From: Escherichia phage vB_EcoM_Skers
Sequence record: MW748999.1
DNA length: 64,000 nt
Direction: 5' to 3' (one strand)
The notes under the pieces: model-generated
Told to the model about the DNA's origin: nothing
What the model saw: only the letters and a program-made list of their open reading frames with translations
Database searches by the model: none
In this document: piece by piece, positions 1,777 to 62,333 of the stretch
Layout: each line of letters opens with the position of its first letter
How positions within the stretch are numbered: position 1 is the first letter of the stretch
Made by a program: the position numbers and the translations under genes

Positions 1777-1804
1777 ATTATACACTGTTGCGTTACGCTG
1801 TCAA
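1777..1804 (-). promoter_or_regulatory. sigma70-type early promoter TTGACA-N16-TATAAT
   Basis: Minus strand reads GTTGACAGCGTAACGCAACAGTGTATAATACAAACATCGAAACAAAGAGAGGATTATATTATG; -35 at 1799-1804, -10 at 1777-1782. Confidence 0.7.
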
Positions 1805-2971
1805 CTCTTTTTCAAAAGATTTTACGATATACATGATAGTGCTCAATTCAGACGGCGCTACTGTCTCTGTCCAGCCATCCGGCATATCTTCTTTCGAGAT
1901 ATAGGAAGTTTTACCTTTCATCGCTTCCTTGATTTTGTTTTCTAATTCTAAGATCTTTTGACCATCTTGTAAAGTCAATTCATAAAAGATCTCGTGATCG
2001 AACTTTGAAACACGAGATTGGTTTCTCATGCGCTCATGTGTTTCTTTGTTTGTTATTCCAAATTTCACGCCAACAAAGGAATCATTGTTGGTTAATTTCT
2101 GTATATAAAGAGTTCCTGTCTTTAATGCCTGATAACCATGCTTAGAACACAACGGGCAGCGTGTTCCGCGATTAACAAAATTATCAATAGTTACAACCCA
2201 TTCATGGTTACGTTCGCATGTCAGAAGTATTCTTGTTAATGCACCTTTCCACTTTCCTGAAATCCCAATAAATTTTAGTCTGTTGGTTTCGCATATTTTT
2301 TCAATTTGTTTTAATCGGTCACTTTTTGTTATTGGTGCTGTTCCGCTACATTTGTGACACCGACGACCTAGTTTGAACTTATCATAACTTTGTTCGTAAA
2401 TGTGATTATTAGGACACTCAAATTTAAGTTTAGTTTTTGTTCCTTTCCATTCCCCAATTATACCCAAAAATTTATAATCTCCTTTATTTTCATTTATATA
2501 AGATAAGGAATCTTCTTTATCATACATCTTGCCACCGTTACATAAAGGACATCTTGTTTTTTGATGAATGAAATCTGTATATGTTGGTTGGTATGTGTGT
2601 CCGTTTGCACAGTTCATAATGAGTCTTGTTCTGCTATTTTTATACTCCCCACCAACAAAACCAACAAATACATCGTTTGTTTCTTGTTTTATTCTTTCTA
2701 TCACATGGTTTAGGTTTAATCTTTGAGAATCAACCACACATTTCTTACACGAAACTTTTTTCCTGATATTTGCTAGAGTTGATGTGTATTCATGCTTGTT
2801 ATTACATAATATAAGAGCTTTTGTTTTGAGACCAGACCATTCTCCAACAAACCCCATGAAAGAATAACCAACTTCCAAACATGAATTTTTTACAACATTT
2901 TCCCAATAGAAGGGAGTTTTCGTGTTTCCTTTTATTTCTATACGAATCTCATGTGCTTGACGTACTAACAT
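1793..2971 (-). CDS. putative GIY-YIG (T5orf172-like) nuclease with four N-terminal zinc-ribbon repeats; possible selfish/homing gene
   Basis: Four repeats of FVGEW.G.KTK...C...H.Y...C.xC; C-terminal GTLYIQKLTNNDSFVGVKFGITNKETHERMRNQ resembles the GIY-YIG core of I-TevI; start set at second ATG (2971) which has SD AAGGAGG, track start 3010. Confidence 0.55.
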   Translation of the reverse strand: MLVRQAHEIRIEIKGNTKTPFYWENVVKNSCLEVGYSFMGFVGEWSGLKTKALILCNNKHEYTSTLANIRKKVSCKKCVVDSQRLNLNHVIERIKQETNDVFVGFVGGEYKNSRTRLIMNCANGHTYQPTYTDFIHQKTRCPLCNGGKMYDKEDSLSYINENKGDYKFLGIIGEWKGTKTKLKFECPNNHIYEQSYDKFKLGRRCHKCSGTAPITKSDRLKQIEKICETNRLKFIGISGKWKGALTRILLTCERNHEWVVTIDNFVNRGTRCPLCSKHGYQALKTGTLYIQKLTNNDSFVGVKFGITNKETHERMRNQSRVSKFDHEIFYELTLQDGQKILELENKIKEAMKGKTSYISKEDMPDGWTETVAPSELSTIMYIVKSFEKELTA

Positions 2972-3001
2972 AATTTTATCCTCCTTTGTTTCGATGTTTG
3001 T

Positions 3002-3029
3002 ATTATACATCCTAACATCAGCATGTCAA
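3002..3029 (-). promoter_or_regulatory. sigma70-type early promoter TTGACA-N16-TATAAT (second copy of the 1777-1804 cassette)
   Basis: Minus strand GTTGACATGCTGATGTTAGGATGTATAATACAAACATCGAAACAAAGGAGGATAAAATTATG; shares about 33 bp with the 1746-1790 cassette. Confidence 0.7.
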
Positions 3030-3051
3030 CACCTTTTTCATAAAAATTTAG

Positions 3052-7484: not shown

Positions 7485-7670
7485 TTAAGTTCTCTCCACT
7501 CTCACAACAACAGACTCATCAAACGAGCTAGATACTTCACGATCATACCCGTATTTCTCCATAACTCGCAGAATTGCATTGTTTAATTCGGCACGGAAAT
7601 AATTGTAATCCTTATCTGGGATTCTGTCAACTACCCATTTTGCACCATCTGACAAATCAAATTTAACCAT
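7485..7670 (-). CDS. hypothetical small protein upstream of rnh
   Basis: ORF track; SD AAGAGGA upstream; first gene of the minus-strand block divergent from gene 34. Confidence 0.5.
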   Translation of the reverse strand: MVKFDLSDGAKWVVDRIPDKDYNYFRAELNNAILRVMEKYGYDREVSSSFDESVVVRVERT

Positions 7671-12860: not shown

Positions 12861-14351
12861 ATGGCAGATTTGAAACATGGATCTACTGTAGGCGGATCTC
12901 CCATTTGGACGCAAGGAAACTTGACGATCCAGCCAGCGGGTGATCAGCTTTTCTACAAAGGTCATAAAATCTATACCGCTTTTGATAAACCTTCGGCTGC
13001 CGATTTTGATGCTGTTAGTGCATCCGAAGGTGGTACATTTCAGAAACTGGTCCATTTTGAGGAAGGTTTAAGCGTAGGTAGCGCATCCGGTGGAGAAACC
13101 AAAAAGAACGGGATCTTTAAAGGAAATAGTGATGCGGCTAACTTTGATGGTGTAAGTTGGGGTTTGCATTCGTGGAAATCTATTGGTTTTGTTAATGCTC
13201 GTGATGATGTTATCATGGCTTATATTGACACTACCACAGGTGATTTTAAAACTAAAGGGACTATCGAAGGGACAACCATTAAAGACACAGGTCAACGCGT
13301 CTATAGCCCTGTTAATAAACCAACGAATAATGATTTAGATTTGGTGTCTCGTCGCGGTGATACCCTCACAGGAACATATAATTTAAACACTGTCACTGTT
13401 AAACTATCGGTTGATTCTAAATTAATTGCAAGGGAACGTGATTTAATTAATTTTGATGCGACTAAGATCTATTATGGTAACGTTCTTGATACGTTGGTCT
13501 TCCGAAGTAAAGATGAGCCTACCATTTTTGTTAATGGCAGAGAAGGTCGTTTTTATCACACCAACAATAAACCAACTAAAGCCGATGTTGGGCTAGGCAA
13601 TGTCACCAATGATGCACAGGTTAAACGTGCTGGTGATATTATGGAAGGTAACTTGCAAGCGCCTAGAATGTTGGCGACAAACGATCCTGCTGGTCCTAAT
13701 GAATTGGTTCGTTTGAGCTACTTTGAGAGAAAATCAATGGTAGCAAATCCAACCATCATTGGAAACGTTGATTGGAACACTCTTATTAATCGCGGTATCT
13801 ATCGTGTGGAAAATGCTGGGTCAGGTACTAATAAACCGTCTGATAGCTATTATAACGGCGTTTTGATGGTATATCGCCCAGAAGATGCGGTCGGTACTCG
13901 TCGAATTGTTCAGGTGTATTATCCTGAATCTATTGACCATCCGATGTGCTGGCGTTCGTGTTCTAATGAATCATGGACTGCATGGAACTATGTAGATCAC
14001 CGTAAATTGGCTGATATTCGCTATGTTAACGTCACTGGCGATACCATGACAGGACCGTTAACTGTTCCGGCTGCAAACGGTGTTCATACCGCAGAAGCTA
14101 ACTATAATGGTGATAATTGCTACGCTGGACTTAATAGCTTAAATGGTACAGCAATGATTTATCGTGTTAGCGATATTAAAGCGCACGAGAAACTAGGAAT
14201 CACACATGATTCTAAAATTATTTTCGTTAAATCTCGTGACAATACTCAGGACACCGATACCTTTGAATTATACCACGAAGGACATAAACCAACTCCTGAT
14301 GAGGTTGGCGCGGTTCCGCTCAATGCGGTAATTGATTTTGGTACTTTCTAA
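12861..14351 (+). CDS. 36: long tail fibre distal connector gp36 (496 aa, longer than the roughly 220 aa recalled for T4)
   Basis: N-terminus MADLKHGSTVGGSPIWTQGNLTIQPAGDQLFYKGHKIY closely matches the T4 gp36 N-terminus. Confidence 0.8.
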   Translation: MADLKHGSTVGGSPIWTQGNLTIQPAGDQLFYKGHKIYTAFDKPSAADFDAVSASEGGTFQKLVHFEEGLSVGSASGGETKKNGIFKGNSDAANFDGVSWGLHSWKSIGFVNARDDVIMAYIDTTTGDFKTKGTIEGTTIKDTGQRVYSPVNKPTNNDLDLVSRRGDTLTGTYNLNTVTVKLSVDSKLIARERDLINFDATKIYYGNVLDTLVFRSKDEPTIFVNGREGRFYHTNNKPTKADVGLGNVTNDAQVKRAGDIMEGNLQAPRMLATNDPAGPNELVRLSYFERKSMVANPTIIGNVDWNTLINRGIYRVENAGSGTNKPSDSYYNGVLMVYRPEDAVGTRRIVQVYYPESIDHPMCWRSCSNESWTAWNYVDHRKLADIRYVNVTGDTMTGPLTVPAANGVHTAEANYNGDNCYAGLNSLNGTAMIYRVSDIKAHEKLGITHDSKIIFVKSRDNTQDTDTFELYHEGHKPTPDEVGAVPLNAVIDFGTF

Positions 14352-14355
14352 TATT

Positions 14356-14378
14356 AGCGGGGATTTCCCCCGCTTTTC
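14356..14378 (+). terminator. stem-loop / weak terminator between genes 36 and 37
   Basis: AGCGGGG-ATTTC-CCCCGCT hairpin followed by TTTTCT. Confidence 0.5.
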
Positions 14379-14419
14379 TAAATAATATTATTCTAATAAC
14401 CGTTTAAGGATTTTATAAA

Positions 14420-17400
14420 ATGGCAGATTTAAACAGAATCCAGTTTAAACGCACTAGCGCAGCCGGACGTAAACCGGATGCTGGTACGATGAATCCGGGA
14501 GAGTTGGCAATTAACTTAGCAGACCAATATCTGCTTACAAAAAATGATGGTGGGCAAATTGTTAATTTAAGTTGCCCGCCAGTTTATGACAAGAGCGTAG
14601 ATCGGAAGAGCACACCGTCTGAACTCCAGTCACCGGCTATGATCTCGTTGACCGCCGTGGTCTACACGGCCCTGAACACTCTTTCCTACACGACGCTCTT
14701 CCGATCTGCAGATTTAAACAGAATCCAGTTTAAACGCACTAGCGCAGCCGGACGTAAACCGGATGCTGGTACGATGAATCCGGGAGAGTTGGCAATTAAC
14801 TTAGCAGACCAATATCTGCTTACAAAAAATGATGGTGGGCAAATTGTTAATTTAAGTTGCCCGCCAGTTTATGACAAGAGCGTTAATGTAAAAGGTCGTG
14901 TGGTTGCAGATGACCTTATGTGGAGTAATACCGCAAACTATTTCGATGACCCAACCGCACGGAATCTTGATAAATTCGGTGCATTTCGTACTAATGATAT
15001 GGATGGTCATCTAGCATTGGCTTTGCATATTCCTCATCCTAGCGGTATAAACCATGCTCGTGGGTTGGATTTTACTTATGGTTCTAACGTTGTTCCTACT
15101 GTAAAAACCTATGGTTATAACGCTGATGGTGCATTGGCATATTCATATCGCATGTATCACGAAGGTGATAAGCCTAGTCCGTCAGAATTAAATGTATACA
15201 GCAAACAAGAAGTAGATCGGATGTTCCAGAAGACCATCAACTTTGGTGTAGAAACTGGATGGTTTAAAATTGCTACAGCATTTATTCCGCAAAATGATGG
15301 ACGTAGCTTGAAAATTAGATTGGTTGGTGGAAATGGGTGGAACGTAGGCCAAACGGGACAATGTAATATTATTGAACTTGTTATAAGGACTAGCAACGGT
15401 TCCCCTAAAGGAATTAACTTTGTTGCATATCATCATGTTTCTGGTTACGAAAATCAATTTTGTGCCATTAATACAGGTGATGACACTTATGATATCTATG
15501 CATATTACTACGAATTTACTAATATGGTATTGGCTGAATATCAAGCGTCCAGCGATGTTAATTTAACTGTATTTGATCGACCTGAATATGTAGGCGAAAA
15601 ACCTGTAGCTGATCATATCTATGATGCATATACAATACGCTCCTTTAACAGTTTCAGTAACCGTGGAACATTAAATTTTGCTGGCAACCATCAAGGCCAA
15701 TATGACATTGAGCATATGAACGAACAACCGACAAATGCTAAAAAGATGTTGCGTCGGTTTCGAAGCTCTGCCAGCGCGACAATCTGGCATGAAACCGTTG
15801 ATGACCAGAATTATCGTCTTGCCGCTGGAAGTACAGACTCAAGTCAACAATTATTGTTGTCTACTGGGACTGGTTTGCATATTCGTAGATTGACCATCGA
15901 TGGTGGCTTAGGTTCCGGTTCTAATGCTGGTATTGATATTCGTCGAGGACCAAACGAATCAAGCCATTTTAATTTTATGGATTATCGCACTGGTCAAGAT
16001 GTTCGTAATGGTTGGTTTGGTTTTGGTGATTTGACGACCAAAGATTTTATTTGGTGGAACGATAACGGTCAAAACTCGATAAACTTGATCGAAAACGGTG
16101 AATTACATATTACTGGTGGTAAAGGCCAGAAAATTGTAATGAATAGCGAAGTTGCATTATCTGAAAATGCTCGTTTGGCTGTTAAAGGTGGTAATTATGG
16201 TTTGTTGTTCCGTAATGATGGTGTTAGTTTCCATATACTGACTACTAATTTAAAGGATTCTTTTGGAAATTGGAATAATCGTAGACCATTTAGTTATGAT
16301 TTTGCCGAAGGTGGATTGGATCTAGGTGGTACTGAAACTGCTCGTTGTTTGCATCTGGGGATCGATGGTAGTACCCGCATCGAAGATAACTTAGTTTTCC
16401 GATCTGGGTCGCGTCAATCAATGGACTATATTGAAATGATCCATTGGGGTAACAGTAATACAGGACGCAACAACGTTTTGAGTATGAAAGACTCGAAAGG
16501 ATTCTTGGCTGAATTTGAGCGCACCGGAACCAATAGCATTAAAACTAGATTCTTTGGTGAAACATTCACTGATGGTACATTATACCTAAATCAGATGAAT
16601 AATAGCTCTGAACGATTCTCTATCAATAATTGGGGAAATTCAGAAGTTGGTCGCGCGGCAGTCTTAGAAGTTGGTGATTCTAAAGGTTATCACTTTTATG
16701 CTGAACGCAGGACTGATAATAGTTCTTTGTTCTCTGTTGGTGGTGCTTTGTTTGTGCAGGGACCTTCCGGGATTATTATCAAAAACTCTGCTGGTGCTCG
16801 CCATGTTTGGTTTAAAGATGACGGTGATAATGAAAAGGCTGTTATTTGGGCGACCGATGAAGGTATATTACATCTACGAAATAATCATGATGGTGCATTT
16901 AGTCATCACTTCCAGGGCGCAATGATTAAACTGCAAGGGCGTGTTCCTTATGATGCAGCAAAGGGAATTGTTCGTGGTGAAGTTTCTGGTGGTGCATATG
17001 TTGCATGGAGAGACCGCCCTGCTGGTTTGTTAGTTGACTGCCAGCAAAGTGTTGATAGTGCTCATGCTGTTTGGAAAGCGGTTGATTGGGGGCGTCAATA
17101 TATCGCTGCTATGGACGTTCACTGTCCTGGTGATGGTAATAATACCGCAGCCGCTGTTCTTCATGTTCAGGCTGCTGATTATCAATTCCATGCAAGCGGA
17201 GAATTTCATGCCAGTGGCAACGGAAACTTTAACGATGTGTATATTCGTTCTGACCGTCGCCTTAAAGACAATATAGAAGATTATACTGGAAATGCGTTAA
17301 GTTTGATTGGTAAACTGAAAGTGAAAACTTACGATAAAGTTAAATCTCTTAAGGACCGTGAAATTATCGGTCACGAGATCGGCATTATCGCACAGGATTT

Positions 17401-17602
17401 ACAAGAAATATTACCGGAAGCTGTAAAATCTTCAAAAATTGGCAATCTTGATAATCCAGATGAAATTCTGACAATTTCTAACTCTGCCGTGAATGCTCTT
17501 TTAATTAAGGCTATTCAGGAAATGAGTGAAGAAATTAAAGAATTGAAAACACCTCTCTTTACTAAAATTGCTCGCAAAATTAGTAAATATTTTAAATTCT
17601 AA
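14420..17602 (+). CDS. 37: long tail fibre distal subunit gp37 with C-terminal intramolecular chaperone domain; ORF as given contains a 285-nt in-frame artefact
   Basis: N-terminus MADLNRIQFKRTSAAGRKPDAG..GELAINL matches the gp37 N-terminus; C-terminal YIRSDRRLKDNIEDYTG is the S74-type auto-cleaving chaperone motif; native length likely about 965 aa. Confidence 0.85.
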   Translation: MADLNRIQFKRTSAAGRKPDAGTMNPGELAINLADQYLLTKNDGGQIVNLSCPPVYDKSVDRKSTPSELQSPAMISLTAVVYTALNTLSYTTLFRSADLNRIQFKRTSAAGRKPDAGTMNPGELAINLADQYLLTKNDGGQIVNLSCPPVYDKSVNVKGRVVADDLMWSNTANYFDDPTARNLDKFGAFRTNDMDGHLALALHIPHPSGINHARGLDFTYGSNVVPTVKTYGYNADGALAYSYRMYHEGDKPSPSELNVYSKQEVDRMFQKTINFGVETGWFKIATAFIPQNDGRSLKIRLVGGNGWNVGQTGQCNIIELVIRTSNGSPKGINFVAYHHVSGYENQFCAINTGDDTYDIYAYYYEFTNMVLAEYQASSDVNLTVFDRPEYVGEKPVADHIYDAYTIRSFNSFSNRGTLNFAGNHQGQYDIEHMNEQPTNAKKMLRRFRSSASATIWHETVDDQNYRLAAGSTDSSQQLLLSTGTGLHIRRLTIDGGLGSGSNAGIDIRRGPNESSHFNFMDYRTGQDVRNGWFGFGDLTTKDFIWWNDNGQNSINLIENGELHITGGKGQKIVMNSEVALSENARLAVKGGNYGLLFRNDGVSFHILTTNLKDSFGNWNNRRPFSYDFAEGGLDLGGTETARCLHLGIDGSTRIEDNLVFRSGSRQSMDYIEMIHWGNSNTGRNNVLSMKDSKGFLAEFERTGTNSIKTRFFGETFTDGTLYLNQMNNSSERFSINNWGNSEVGRAAVLEVGDSKGYHFYAERRTDNSSLFSVGGALFVQGPSGIIIKNSAGARHVWFKDDGDNEKAVIWATDEGILHLRNNHDGAFSHHFQGAMIKLQGRVPYDAAKGIVRGEVSGGAYVAWRDRPAGLLVDCQQSVDSAHAVWKAVDWGRQYIAAMDVHCPGDGNNTAAAVLHVQAADYQFHASGEFHASGNGNFNDVYIRSDRRLKDNIEDYTGNALSLIGKLKVKTYDKVKSLKDREIIGHEIGIIAQDLQEILPEAVKSSKIGNLDNPDEILTISNSAVNALLIKAIQEMSEEIKELKTPLFTKIARKISKYFKF
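14423..14883 (+). repeat. perfect 176-bp direct duplication (14423-14598 and 14708-14883) flanking the adapter-derived insert
   Basis: The two copies are base-for-base identical and re-encode gp37 residues 2-60. Confidence 0.9.
14599..14707. other. Illumina adapter-derived sequence (library/assembly artefact)
   Basis: Begins AGATCGGAAGAGCACACCGTCTGAACTCCAGTCAC plus 8-nt index-like CGGCTATG and ATCTCGT; ends ACACTCTTTCCTACACGACGCTCTTCCGATCT; both are adapter sequences with single-base indels. Confidence 0.9.
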
Positions 17603-17638: not shown

Positions 17639-18418
17639 ATGGCAGTAGTTGGTGTTCCTGGTTGGATTGGAAGTTCAGCCGCAAATGAAACAGGACAACG
17701 TTGGATGAGTCAAGCGGCTGGACAATTAAGATTGGGTGTTCCCTGCTGGATGAGTCAATTTGCAGGTCGCTCGCGAGAAATTATTCATACTGTAGGAGCA
17801 AACCACAATTTTAATGGCCAGTGGTTCCGTGATAGATGCTTTGAAGCTGGCGGTGCACCTATTGTATTCAATATTGTCGGTGATATCGTTTCTTATTCTA
17901 AAGATGTACCACTTTTCTTTATGTATGGAGATACACCTAATGAATATGTGGTTCTTAATATTCATGGCGGAGTTCATATGTGGGGACGAGGTGGTAACGG
18001 TACTGTAAACGGAAACCCGGGCACAAATGGCGGCGATGTAATCCAAAATGATATCGGCGGAAGACTTCGTATTTGGAACTATGGCGTTATTGCATCAGGC
18101 GGCGGCGGTGGTGGTGCAGTGTCATTACAGAATAGCTGGGCGCCAAATGCTACAGCAGGTGGCGGTGGTGGTAGACCATTTGGCATCGGCGGAGGCGGCG
18201 TTAATTGGCCGGGTGGTAATGCTAGTTATGACGCACCGGGCGGAGCCGGTTACACTTCCCAATTCGGCGGAGGCAATGGCGGTGATGCTGGAGGTTGGGG
18301 TGGAGATGGATGGGGTAATCACTTATCTAGATCCGGCGGTGGTGCTCCAGGTAGAGCGGTATTCGGTTCTTCACCATCATGGGGTGCTGTAGGGACAATT
18401 TATGGATCTTACATTTAA
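17639..18418 (+). CDS. 38: T2-type receptor-binding adhesin gp38 with glycine-rich motifs
   Basis: N-terminus [50 protein letters not shown] closely matches the T2 gp38 N-terminus; C-terminal half has poly-Gly blocks separated by variable segments. Confidence 0.85.
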
Positions 18419-18478
18419 CCGTTAAAAAAGAATTAAGGAAAACTCCCACGGAAGGGAACTTACTAAGGAGAAACGGCT

Positions 18479-18718
18479 ATGGTCTATAATATCGTCATTG
18501 GTGCTTTGTCTAATTTCGGAATGAAACTATTATCAAAGTTAATTAGTGAAAAGATGCTCACTAAAATTTTCTTCTACTGCGCTCGTCGTCTTGCGGCTTA
18601 TACCAATACGCCAATTGATGATCGTTTTGTGGAAGAACTTTATAAGGAGTTTAATAAAGATCAGTCAGAAGATAGTAACGAGCAAGATAAACCTAGTGAT
18701 AGTCAAGTACCTAAATAA
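18479..18718 (+). CDS. hypothetical small protein between 38 and t (hydrophobic N-terminus, acidic C-terminus)
   Basis: ORF track; SD AAGGAG 9 nt upstream of ATG. Confidence 0.55.
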   Translation: MVYNIVIGALSNFGMKLLSKLISEKMLTKIFFYCARRLAAYTNTPIDDRFVEELYKEFNKDQSEDSNEQDKPSDSQVPK

Positions 18719-22245: not shown

Positions 22246-22276
22246 TTTGATTCTCCTTCGTTGTCTTGATGAGTTT

Positions 22277-22305
22277 AGTATAGGGGATCGCCGATCCCCT
22301 GTCAA
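22277..22305 (-). promoter_or_regulatory. PeSL-like early promoter
   Basis: Minus strand TTGACA-GGGGATCGGCGATCCCC-TATACT; the 17-nt spacer is a perfect palindrome. Confidence 0.65.
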
Positions 22306-22319
22306 CCAGTTTTTAGAAA

Positions 22320-22580
22320 TTATTTTCGCCATTCACCGGAAACAATGAAGTTTGTAAAGTGATTGTGGTCCGTGATAATGTCATTAAGTACCATATGCGG
22401 ATATGCTTTAGTGTAATCACGTTTACGATCAGTCATCCAACCAACGAAAGTCGGTGCAAAGTACGGCACACCGTCAGATGATGCCATATTAAACCCTTTA
22501 TCAGCCATAAATGCAGCCGCCCTAAGATTTTTAATTGAAGTAGTGCGACTAATTTCAAAAACTTTATCAGTAAAATTCAT
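22320..22580 (-). CDS. hypothetical protein (86 aa)
   Basis: ORF track; ATGA-type overlap with the upstream ORF. Confidence 0.5.
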   Translation of the reverse strand: MNFTDKVFEISRTTSIKNLRAAAFMADKGFNMASSDGVPYFAPTFVGWMTDRKRDYTKAYPHMVLNDIITDHNHFTNFIVSGEWRK

Positions 22581-30877: not shown

Positions 30878-30907
30878 ATAAGTCAACCTTTTGTTTTCGA
30901 TGGGGAT

Positions 30908-30936
30908 ATTATGATATATCCCCGATCCGGTGTCAA
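30908..30936 (-). promoter_or_regulatory. PeSL-like early promoter
   Basis: Minus strand TTGACA-N17-CATAAT overlapping palindrome GGGGATAT-ATCATA-ATATCCCC. Confidence 0.55.
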
Positions 30937-30943
30937 CAGATTT

Positions 30944-31243
30944 TTAATCTTTTTTCAGTGCATCCATTACTCGCTCTGCGATCAGTTCTCTTAAGCACTG
31001 ATAACCATGATATTTGATGGCAATGTCACGCAGATCATTAACCAGTTCCCGTACTTCATGGTCTTTCAGATCGTCTCTGTATTTCGATTTAATCGTATCT
31101 TTAGGTGGATTGCGGATAACCTGAAAACCTTGTTCTGCAATCACTGCGGCTTCTCGCTGGCGTTCATGCTGTACTGTATTTTTGATCAGGTCTGCTTCCA
31201 TGAACTTTGCCACACTCATCATCATGTTATTCTTTTTGCTCAT
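30944..31243 (-). CDS. hypothetical protein (99 aa)
   Basis: Track ORF 30944..31324 overlaps the gene 39 3' end and the promoter; start set at ATG 31243 (MSKKNN) with SD GAGGA. Confidence 0.5.
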   Translation of the reverse strand: MSKKNNMMMSVAKFMEADLIKNTVQHERQREAAVIAEQGFQVIRNPPKDTIKSKYRDDLKDHEVRELVNDLRDIAIKYHGYQCLRELIAERVMDALKKD

Positions 31244-44795: not shown

Positions 44796-44823
44796 ATTAT
44801 ACACACTTTATCTTAAATGTCAA
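44796..44823 (-). promoter_or_regulatory. strong sigma70-type promoter TTGACA-N16-TGTGTATAAT (extended -10) just downstream of gene 43
   Basis: Minus strand TTGACATTTAAGATAAAGTGTGTATAAT. Confidence 0.65.
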
Positions 44824-47491
44824 ACAGGTCAGTCAGAGAAGCAACTTTTTCATATTGCAGCTTTGCAGCCGTGGTAATGTTCTCCAGTGGTTTGACGAAA
44901 GTCTTATTAAACAACAAAGGCCAGTCCAACCACTTCAACACCTCTGATTCAATTTCTGGCGGAATACGAGTACCGGACAACCAACCAAAACAGATTTCTC
45001 CAAACGGATTTCGATCTTTAAGCGGTACAATCATAACCTTCTCGCCTTCACGAATCGGATCTAGTCCGAATTTTCGAGCATTACGATTATAACACAATAC
45101 ACTCTTAACCGCATACGGACAACCCTTAATCGGATACCCGTTTGAATCGCTGTATTTCTGTAGGTTGTTTGCAGATGATACCGCAGCAACCTCAAGATAG
45201 TCAAGTTTTCTAAACTCTTGCTCAAAAATACCGTAGTATTCCTGCAATGACTCTTCACCTTCCTGCAACATACGGCGAATACATTCTTTCAGTGATTTCT
45301 GACATGCTTTAGGGGTGGAGCTACGTTGCGTTTCCAAGCCCATGATTTTTAGCTTAGGCTCAGCAAAGCGCGTTCCTTCCATATCCCAAACATTAAGAGC
45401 ATAACGCTTTTTGCCAGTCCAGAATCCACCGATACCCGCAGATTTCAACGGAGGACCAGCAATTGCCTCACGGTCCATAAACATCAAGTGCTCATAGTTG
45501 TTCATGTACTCGCATAACTCGCGATATCCCTTGTCGATAATCGGTTCCATTCTATGTTTACCGAAATTATCAAGGAAGTCAACAAGTTTTTCGGTATCGT
45601 CGAAACGATCTTCCCCGCCAACCTTATCAACAACATTGTTAACCAGCACATAAACGGAGTCAGTATCACAATAACGAACATATGCAAAATCAGTTGTTCC
45701 GCAAAGCTCGTTTAAGTATTCGTTAATCTTGCGCTCAATCCACTGAATTGCAAGCTGACCGAACAAGGTGATCGCACTAGCGTTGCGGAGATCATAAAAA
45801 CGGAATTTAGGATTCCCCAACGCACCATAAAGGGAGTTGATCAAAACTTTTCGAGAAAGCTGGTTTGTATTGCACAAGATCGACTCGTCTTTACATTCTT
45901 CCAGCAATTTCTCTAAGGCATCTTTACTTAATTCAGAAAGCATCGATTTAAACGCTTCATCGAAGTCGTGACGTACTTCAACGCTATAGCTAATGGTTCC
46001 CCCATAAACATGATTTTCATCGTGTAGAATCGCTTTACAGAGTTCAGCATTGCGATCACATGCCAACATCATGTTTTTGTACTGCTTACGCTGATCGAAT
46101 ACCTTTTTAATCTCAATAGGTACGATACCGTGAATATCTTTTCTATACATCCATCCGTTAGGCGAGCAAGAATACTCATCACTCGGACGTGGTGCAGTTT
46201 TATTGATATACTCGTGCATCGGTGCAGCATCAAAAGATCCGGCGATTGTTTCCGGCGAAATGTTAACCTGTCGAATAATAGATGGATACAGACTTGTTAG
46301 GTCAAAGCTCATCATCCAACGGTAAGCATTCGGCACAGGTTCTTTTACAAATGCGCCTGGATACGTCTGCTTAGGATGTATCTTATTTTCCGGTACTACT
46401 TTACCCTCAGCTTTCAGAGATCCGAAGATAATAGCATCCCATACTTTCATCGGGTTATAAACATGGTTAAATTTAATCTTTGCATAGAAACATAGGCTAT
46501 ACACCAGATCGATAAATCCGCGCTTTTTATCAATCGCCAGCACACGATCAACGTCGCCGATGTTATAATCGATGTAAAGTTGATGGTTGTCATCACGCAA
46601 TTTCTTTAACGGACCATCATAATCAACCTTACCGATTCCGGTCTCATATTCAGCAACATAATCTAATGCATATGTTGGTTGAGTCGTAAAGCTAAACTTC
46701 TTGTACAGGTCAATATAATCAAGGCTTTCGATCCCCATGATCGTAAATGCTTCACGCTCGTTGCCAAAATCATCCTGTGAGATTCGGGATTTAATCTTAC
46801 CGCACGGGCTTAGACGGTTTGCCGTTCGACTTCCAAACTTATTCCCGATACGTTTAATGATATATGGAATATCGAATGTTTCTGTGTTCCAGCCAGTGAA
46901 ACCAACGGGTCGGTTTTCCTCAAAGAATCGGATGTATTCTAACAGCAATTCATCTTCTGTGTCATAGACGTTATAAACAACGCGCTCTACAATATCAGGT
47001 CGAAGAATAGACTTGCTAGATTCCCAGATTTCACCGTTTTTTCCTTTCAAATCAAATACAAAGAAACGATCATGTACGGAATCATAATGCGTAATTGCAT
47101 CGATAGGATATTTCGCTTCTTCTGGTTTAGGAAATTCTGGGGCAGTGACCTCAATATCAACCCATGCTACACGGATTTTATTTCGGTCATATCGAATCTC
47201 GCCTTTATATGTATCGGACAGATAGGAGATGATAAAATCATCCATCCCTAGTGCCTCCTGCCCCATTTCTCCCATCTTTTTACGCCATTTGTTGGCCTCG
47301 TTCATAGATGGGAATTTTTTAGCAATGCAAGGCTTGCCGTAGATATCTTTATAATTCGTAACCATACCAGGCGCGGCATGATGAAATAAAGTTGGCATAT
47401 ATTCAACGTAACGCTCTTGTTCTTGTCCAGCATCATCAATATAACGCTCGTAGATCTTATCACCCACTCGCTCACATGACAGAAAATACAT
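44813..47491 (-). CDS. 43: DNA polymerase gp43 (family B)
   Basis: Strong match to T4 gp43 by recall (ERYIDD, YDRNKIRVAWVDIEVT, FDLTSLYPSIIRQVNISPETI, NSLYGALGN, YCDTDSVYV); start at ATG 47491 with SD AAGGAG (track starts at GTG 47521). Confidence 0.9.
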   Translation of the reverse strand: MYFLSCERVGDKIYERYIDDAGQEQERYVEYMPTLFHHAAPGMVTNYKDIYGKPCIAKKFPSMNEANKWRKKMGEMGQEALGMDDFIISYLSDTYKGEIRYDRNKIRVAWVDIEVTAPEFPKPEEAKYPIDAITHYDSVHDRFFVFDLKGKNGEIWESSKSILRPDIVERVVYNVYDTEDELLLEYIRFFEENRPVGFTGWNTETFDIPYIIKRIGNKFGSRTANRLSPCGKIKSRISQDDFGNEREAFTIMGIESLDYIDLYKKFSFTTQPTYALDYVAEYETGIGKVDYDGPLKKLRDDNHQLYIDYNIGDVDRVLAIDKKRGFIDLVYSLCFYAKIKFNHVYNPMKVWDAIIFGSLKAEGKVVPENKIHPKQTYPGAFVKEPVPNAYRWMMSFDLTSLYPSIIRQVNISPETIAGSFDAAPMHEYINKTAPRPSDEYSCSPNGWMYRKDIHGIVPIEIKKVFDQRKQYKNMMLACDRNAELCKAILHDENHVYGGTISYSVEVRHDFDEAFKSMLSELSKDALEKLLEECKDESILCNTNQLSRKVLINSLYGALGNPKFRFYDLRNASAITLFGQLAIQWIERKINEYLNELCGTTDFAYVRYCDTDSVYVLVNNVVDKVGGEDRFDDTEKLVDFLDNFGKHRMEPIIDKGYRELCEYMNNYEHLMFMDREAIAGPPLKSAGIGGFWTGKKRYALNVWDMEGTRFAEPKLKIMGLETQRSSTPKACQKSLKECIRRMLQEGEESLQEYYGIFEQEFRKLDYLEVAAVSSANNLQKYSDSNGYPIKGCPYAVKSVLCYNRNARKFGLDPIREGEKVMIVPLKDRNPFGEICFGWLSGTRIPPEIESEVLKWLDWPLLFNKTFVKPLENITTAAKLQYEKVASLTDLFDI

Positions 47492-47523
47492 AATATAAAC
47501 TCCTTCACTTACGAAAGACACTC

Positions 47524-61724: not shown

Positions 61725-61766
61725 ATTTGATTCTCCTGTAAAGTTGTATCTCGTCTTGATGAATAT

Positions 61767-61795
61767 AGTATAGGGGATCTCGCGATCCCCGTCAA
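61767..61795 (-). promoter_or_regulatory. PeSL-like early promoter
   Basis: Minus strand TTGACG-GGGATCGCGAGATCCCC-TATACT; palindromic 17-nt spacer. Confidence 0.65.
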
Positions 61796-61799
61796 GCAT

Positions 61800-62333
61800 T
61801 TATTTTAAATTTTTTCGAATGTATTCAGACCATTCCTTCCCTGTCATTTCGGACCCATTCTGGAAACTGAAATATTCATACGGCATCGAGTCAAGATAAA
61901 ACAGGATCATACATCGCGCCATATAATACCAATCACGATTAAAGTAAACTACGTTATCGCCAGTACCATCAGCACCTTTATCATAACCATCGCGGGTACG
62001 GGCGACCCATTGAATGGTATCATTTTTCTCACGGATAGTAACAGGTTCCCAATATCCAGCACATCCAGCATGACCACACGAACAAGTAAGGAAATATTGA
62101 CCTTTTGCTTTGTTGTCATCCCATTCACGATGAATTGGTTCGATTTCGTGAAACAGTGCTAAGCAATCATGATTATGCAACACTGGCTCACCATCAATCA
62201 ATGCATGGAATGTATACAAACGACCCGTAGACAAATAGCTATCCTCACGCTCAACCAGTTCAATAGCAATCTTTTTAGCTTGTTCTTTGTGTCGTTGTGC
62301 TTTACGTTTACGGTTTAATGATTTCATAGTCAC
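61800..62333 (-). CDS. hypothetical protein (177 aa; Cys/His cluster CSCGHAGCAGYW)
   Basis: ORF track. Confidence 0.5.
   Translation of the reverse strand: MTMKSLNRKRKAQRHKEQAKKIAIELVEREDSYLSTGRLYTFHALIDGEPVLHNHDCLALFHEIEPIHREWDDNKAKGQYFLTCSCGHAGCAGYWEPVTIREKNDTIQWVARTRDGYDKGADGTGDNVVYFNRDWYYMARCMILFYLDSMPYEYFSFQNGSEMTGKEWSEYIRKNLK

Follow-up and report, generated by a model that had tools for sequence, protein, structure and literature searches.

Does gene 37 of Escherichia phage vB_EcoM_Skers, which encodes the distal subunit of the long tail fibre, truly open with a duplication of its own 5' end, or were the second copy and the foreign-looking spacer before it introduced between the sequencing library and the finished record? 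We analyzed a window of 64,000 nucleotides (nt) of the genome record (MW748999.1), the whole stretch of DNA considered here, in which the initial annotation had described adapter-derived sequence between two identical fragments of gene 37. The window belongs to a Krischvirus genome (RB49-like, Straboviridae) and was matched best in a phage collection by FL20 (96.4%), kvi, and KFS-EC; a literature search found no publication on vB_EcoM_Skers. The feature at 14423-14883 is not biological. Judged from its letters and from comparison with relatives, the additional 285 nt are almost certainly an assembly artefact, not phage DNA, and would have arisen from the read-through of a single library molecule whose insert measured 176 bp.

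Module-by-module alignment to canonical sequences identified the 109 nt at 14599-14707 as TruSeq dual-index adapters (Table 1). Written out, the insert opens with AGATCGGAAGAGCACAC+C+GTCTGAACTCCAGTCAC at 14599-14633, continues past the i7 index and the start of P7 to a degraded P5 end that reads T + GACCgCCGtGgTCTACAC (14649-14667), and closes with ACACTCTTTCC(-C)TACACGACGCTCTTCCGATCT at 14676-14707, where the universal adapter lies directly 5' of genomic sequence. The initial annotation had reported an extra C, a missing C, and an 8-nt index within this adapter-derived stretch, each of which the alignment reproduced. By comparison with the D7xx/D5xx lists, the indices correspond to D709 (exact) and D504 (1 mismatch). 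The exact 17-mer GTCTGAACTCCAGTCAC occurred once in the window, against 0.02 occurrences expected from shuffles (≤2 mismatches), and the exact 21-mer TACACGACGCTCTTCCGATCT also occurred once, against 0.00 expected (≤3 mismatches). An adapter screen of the complete 64-kb window, which covered Illumina, Nextera, MGI, Ion Torrent, 454, ONT, and PacBio sequences, returned 14599-14707 as the only adapter site; it gave no match of any other type.

Table 1. Features of the gene 37 region and of the adapter-derived insert in vB_EcoM_Skers (positions in the 64-kb window).
Feature	Position	Strand	Evidence or remark
Gene 37, long tail fibre distal subunit, as recorded: 1060 aa, 95 too many	14420..17602	+	ORF list, QXN69117.1, Pfam
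Copy 1, 176-nt fragment (gene 37 codons 2-59 + 2 nt of codon 60)	14423..14598	+	100% identical to copy 2
Index-adapter read-through AGATCGGAAGAGCACACGTCTGAACTCCAGTCAC + one extra C	14599..14633	+	Alignment to canonical adapter
i7 index CGGCTATG = D709/i709, exact	14634..14641	+	D7xx/D5xx index lists
ATCTCGT, nt 1-7 of P7' (reverse complement of the P7 flow-cell sequence)	14642..14648	+	Position-by-position comparison
Noisy join: T + GACCGCCGTGGTCTACAC = last 18 nt of P5, 3 substitutions	14649..14667	+	Position-by-position comparison
D504-like i5 index GGCCCTGA (D504 = GGCTCTGA; one substitution, GGCcCTGA)	14668..14675	+	
TruSeq universal adapter ACACTCTTTCCCTACACGACGCTCTTCCGATCT minus one C	14676..14707	+	Alignment to canonical adapter
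Copy 2, 176-nt fragment, running on into authentic gene 37	14708..14883	+	
gp38 adhesin gene, untouched by the artefact	17639..18418	+	Pfam GP38 (PF05268) E 2.2e-80; Gp38_N E 6.7e-20

Much can be learned from the module order. The 3' adapter precedes the 5' adapter, with the P7 and P5 flow-cell ends facing each other, and the centre of the insert is 27 nt short of an end-to-end join of P7' and P5. The ligation ends (A at 14599, T at 14707) each adjoin a genomic copy, and these two bases match the A-tail and T-overhang positions of ligated-adapter library chemistry. An adapter dimer would likewise contain nothing but the adapter pair of a single library kit, but it has the 5' adapter ligated straight to the 3' adapter (...CTCTTCCGATCT followed immediately by AGATCGGAAGAGC...), an order that is reversed in Skers. 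A dimer was therefore rejected: its GATCT/AGATC junction is absent, and both of these ends point towards the genomic copies instead.

The copies at 14423-14598 and 14708-14883 are direct repeats with a start-to-start spacing of 285 nt, and their complete identity over 176 nt was as the initial annotation had stated. Extension by even one base is not possible on either side, the left neighbours being G and T and the right neighbours A and T. A repeat scan of the window found no other long exact repeats beyond divergent biological repeats. What is duplicated coincides exactly with the stretch between the two ligation junctions, a precision that we attribute to both junctions being the ends of one 176-bp insert. 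Earlier, the structure had been ascribed to a chimeric read or a misassembly; the artefact stands, but because its junctions are the two ends of a single insert, the random chimera does not.

The added sequence (285 nt = 3 x 95) leaves the ORF at 14420-17602 open. Its 1060-aa product matches GenBank QXN69117.1 ('putative tail fiber protein', vB_EcoM_Skers) exactly; residues 2-60 return at 97-155, with translated adapter (DRKSTPSELQSPAMISLTAVVYTALNTLSYTTLFRS) occupying residues 61-96 in between. Of the 14 full-length members of the corresponding 90% protein cluster, the other 13 measure 956-966 aa vs 1060 aa for QXN69117.1, and the adapter peptide was found in 0/13 of them. ORF and cluster lengths thus agree with the earlier description of an in-frame, uninterrupted addition of 285 nt that makes gp37 95 aa too long and repeats residues 2-60. 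After repair, the 965-aa gp37 aligned gap-free to five 965-aa cluster members at 94-97% identity. Nucleotide comparison gave the same picture. Positions 13900-15500 (1601 nt) corresponded to matching stretches of only 1315-1318 nt in FL20, kvi, and KFS-EC, and multiple alignment showed one 176-nt copy and a clean 285-column gap in these three genomes and in RB49. KFS-EC is identical to the window over the native junction (GACAAGAGCGT/TAATGTAAAAGG). By local BLAST, the window is colinear with kvi, and the offset changes by 285 nt at the artefact site only.

Could the arrangement be a real genome feature, either a natural in-frame duplication of the gp37 N-terminus around a foreign spacer or an engineered insertion? 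The ORF remains open, and T4 host-range mutants with in-frame gene 37 duplications offer a precedent. Such T4-type duplications are in-frame, affect the C-terminal receptor-binding region, and consist of phage sequence only. The Skers repeat resembles them as an in-frame tandem repeat that lengthens the fibre protein, but differs in being N-terminal and in carrying a synthetic spacer. A natural tandem duplication of the tail fibre was rejected, the spacer not being phage-derived and no relative having two copies. A real feature of any kind also has against it that the spacer is made of synthetic Illumina adapter and includes a catalogue index, that the copies show zero differences, that the arrangement is absent from FL20, kvi, KFS-EC, RB49, and all other cluster proteins, and that unrelated phage records contain these adapter sequences too; we regard it as wildly improbable. 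An insert of this kind would be in frame and stop-free by chance in ~6% of cases (1/3 x (61/64)^36, a rough estimate), so the open frame is weak evidence of selection; moreover, artefacts that break a frame stand a greater chance of being spotted and taken out. Equally far-fetched is a recombination of library DNA into the phage stock during laboratory handling, which would have lengthened gp37 by 95 residues at the end that binds gp36 and left the phage viable; the sequence offers no support for it. The earlier verdict of a misassembly artefact instead of phage biology is hence upheld by the modular adapter order, the catalogue index, the relatives that lack the 285 nt, and the unrelated records.

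We propose that the artefact originated from one TruSeq-type molecule (ligated Y-adapter, dual-index D709/D504-like) whose 176-bp insert represented native gene 37 nt 4-179. As this insert would have been shorter than the read length, both reads would have entered adapter sequence: read 1 would have continued past the insert into the index adapter and on to the i7 index and P7, and read 2 past the insert into the universal adapter and on to the i5 index and P5. In plus orientation, the untrimmed tails would run from the fragment into the 3' adapter and from the 5' adapter into the fragment. Joining these low-quality tails would create a path from the fragment end back to the fragment start, and a single traversal of that path would give upstream - fragment - adapters - fragment - downstream, in effect a circular permutation of the library molecule. 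The part attributable to read 1 comprises 176+50 nt and that attributable to read 2 176+59 nt, both <250 nt, from which we infer reads of at least ~235 nt and hence 2x250 or 2x300 chemistry. Candidates for the joining step are a de Bruijn short loop or paired-end gap closer, a gapped overlap consensus, an abutted contig end and start, and a physical chimera. A literature search for loop-type adapter artefacts gave nothing useful.

The distribution of errors bears on this proposal in both directions. In its favour, substitutions concentrate in P5/i5, at the greatest distance from the insert, where reads are poorest. The two single-base indels sit in the adapter parts nearest the insert and count against read-through with tail joining, as do the 27 nt missing from the central join and the assembler's retention of what was presumably a low-coverage path. 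Indels are uncommon in Illumina base-calling, and those seen here hint at faulty oligo synthesis, at a consensus built with gaps, or at one aberrant molecule. We also considered the noisy centre (14639-14665) as a per-column mosaic of the P7' tail superposed on the P5 head and rejected it, since the sequence switches cleanly from one to the other at 14648-14650. Of the P5 deviations, 2/3 carry the in-register P7' base (~26% chance, not significant). When the tails are superposed in the observed register, 8/27 bases agree, and at least one other register scores higher; the join was therefore not guided by sequence similarity.

Were the structure a physical chimera, the indels would be explained as traits of one molecule. 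Such a chimera would be a head-to-tail dimer of the 176-bp-insert molecule, formed with a truncated P7/P5 junction during library PCR, then sequenced and assembled. It would account for a contiguous k-mer path via ATCTCGT-T-GACC (the ATCTCGTTGACCGCC junction), and the 461-nt structure is within reach of an overlapping 2x250 pair. Against this, the P7'/P5 join shows no obvious microhomology, and the substitutions sit where read quality is worst, so that base-calling noise fits them better than a clean molecule does. We consider a chimera of this kind unlikely and favour read-through of a short insert with joined tails.

What does the artefact distort? Corrected gp37 is 965 aa long, which is obtained by removing 14599-14883 or, equally, 14423-14707. 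The recorded protein carries the Pfam domains Gp34_trimer and Peptidase_S74; the latter, an intramolecular chaperone domain, occupies residues 944-1003 of the recorded model, in the C-terminal part of gp37. The artefact lies on the N-terminal side, which we take to be the end that joins gp36. The initial annotation had warned that any host-range inference from this gp37 model would be wrong. This holds for whole-length comparison, for structure prediction, and for the gp36-gp37 joint, but the warning was overstated, because the error is confined to N-terminal residues 61-155 and both the C-terminal part of gp37 and the gp38 gene are intact and unaffected, so that conclusions on receptor specificity drawn from these two regions still stand. 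As a database error, the 285 nt are carried by QXN69117.1 and by the genome record, and their importance is one of data hygiene only. Length comparisons, structure prediction, alignments of the gp36-gp37 junction, and pangenome clustering are distorted by QXN69117.1, and the adapter-encoded peptide can seed false matches. Adapter contamination of this class is screened for by NCBI VecScreen/FCS-adaptor. Slightly degenerate adapter inserts that keep the frame can slip past submission screens and gene-calling checks, and the present one went unflagged because its 285 nt are in frame and stop-free, so that one long ORF was called.

Several further observations concern the record and the window as a whole. 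The vB_EcoM_Skers record measures 154,769 nt vs 162-169 kb in related Krischvirus genomes and may be incomplete or contain further assembly problems. An intergenic cassette is repeated on the minus strand (22263-22325, 30894-30956, and 61753-61815) and consists of TTGACA, a G+C hairpin (GGGGATCGGCGATCCCC), and TATACT, with the stem-loop placed between the -35 and -10 boxes; the arrangement resembles the 'promoter-early stem-loop' cassettes of RB49-type phages. A 405-aa ORF (1793-3010, minus strand) encodes four CapR-homology/treble-clef zinc-finger modules (PF21817 E 3e-29, PF14311). It lies within a 1.16-kb stretch that is absent from kvi and has a 54-nt direct repeat on either side (1759-1812, 2984-3037; 78% identity), possibly a mobile or shuffled gene cassette. 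The DNA polymerase is one intact 902-aa ORF in the window (44813-47521, minus strand), whereas kvi (MN850615.1, 117883-121675) has it annotated as two CDSs ~1.1 kb apart with a hypothetical protein between them; the kvi polymerase thus looks as though it carries an intervening element that is absent from the Skers window.

Adapter remnants are known from microbial genome databases, in which forward adapters cluster at contig ends and their reverse complements at contig starts (PMC11536531; Moeller et al. 2024, BMC Genomics). The survey and the Skers insert share their adapter sequences (the AGATCGGAAGAGC core, CACACGTCTGAACTCCAGTCA, and the reverse complement of CGTCGTGTAGGGAAAGAGTGT) and also the orientation of these, in which genomic sequence leads into the forward adapter and follows the reverse complement. 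Unlike the surveyed adapters, which sit at contig extremities and break contigs, those of Skers are internal, joined to one another, and bridge a 176-nt duplication; they also lie inside an uninterrupted annotated CDS and contain indels and substitutions. The shared orientation supports the proposed artefact and is also relevant to the stage at which the tails were joined. Given the same short-insert origin, the join could date from finishing, when the adapter-capped ends of a circularly permuted contig were concatenated on circularising or re-orienting. The contig would then have begun with the 5' adapter and the fragment and ended with the fragment and the 3' adapter, and the 176-bp overlap would have been missed because the adapter tails hid it. 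The module order agrees with the contig-end/contig-start pattern of PMC11536531, the error-rich, truncated adapter ends resemble single-read contig tips, and deposited phage records capped with adapters at both termini exist (SSMH01, Andhra, and Whiting18). A finishing-stage join requires both contig ends to have been capped by reads of one pair, however, and 176 nt is atypical as a k-mer terminal overlap; we regard it as possible but doubtful.

Within the phage collection, parts of the 109-nt insert matched 30 phage records from >10 unrelated host genera, among them phages of Klebsiella, Salmonella, Staphylococcus, Bacillus, Mycobacterium, and Caulobacter. No record in the collection covered ≥80% of the 109 nt, and none had back-to-back adapters between two copies of a fragment. 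Three records have adapters on both termini (SSMH01, OR360270.1; Andhra, KY442063.1; Whiting18, MW477480.1), and in Nsp-JY21 (PP438413.1) and WPEC3 (PV611058.1) the adapters are accompanied by poly-G/poly-C runs. The Andhra record (KY442063.1, NC_047813.1) also has an annotated 155-nt terminal repeat_region (14-168 and 18380-18534), the outer ends of which are ~42 nt of TruSeq index adapter each (14-55, reverse complement; 18493-18534, forward), and the true inverted terminal repeat of Andhra is probably shorter than annotated. Two further records have complete internal adapters. In HMD-P3 (PQ462667.1, ~7536-7605), a P5 adapter flanked by a 40-nt direct repeat splits an endonuclease gene, whereas the frame is kept in Skers; in Ccr29 (KY555145.1, ~150480-150542), a P7 adapter is followed by a 295-nt copy of the upstream sequence. 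Since adapter-bearing phage records with duplicated flanks thus exist beyond Skers, an adapter together with a duplicated flank represents a recurrent type of artefact.
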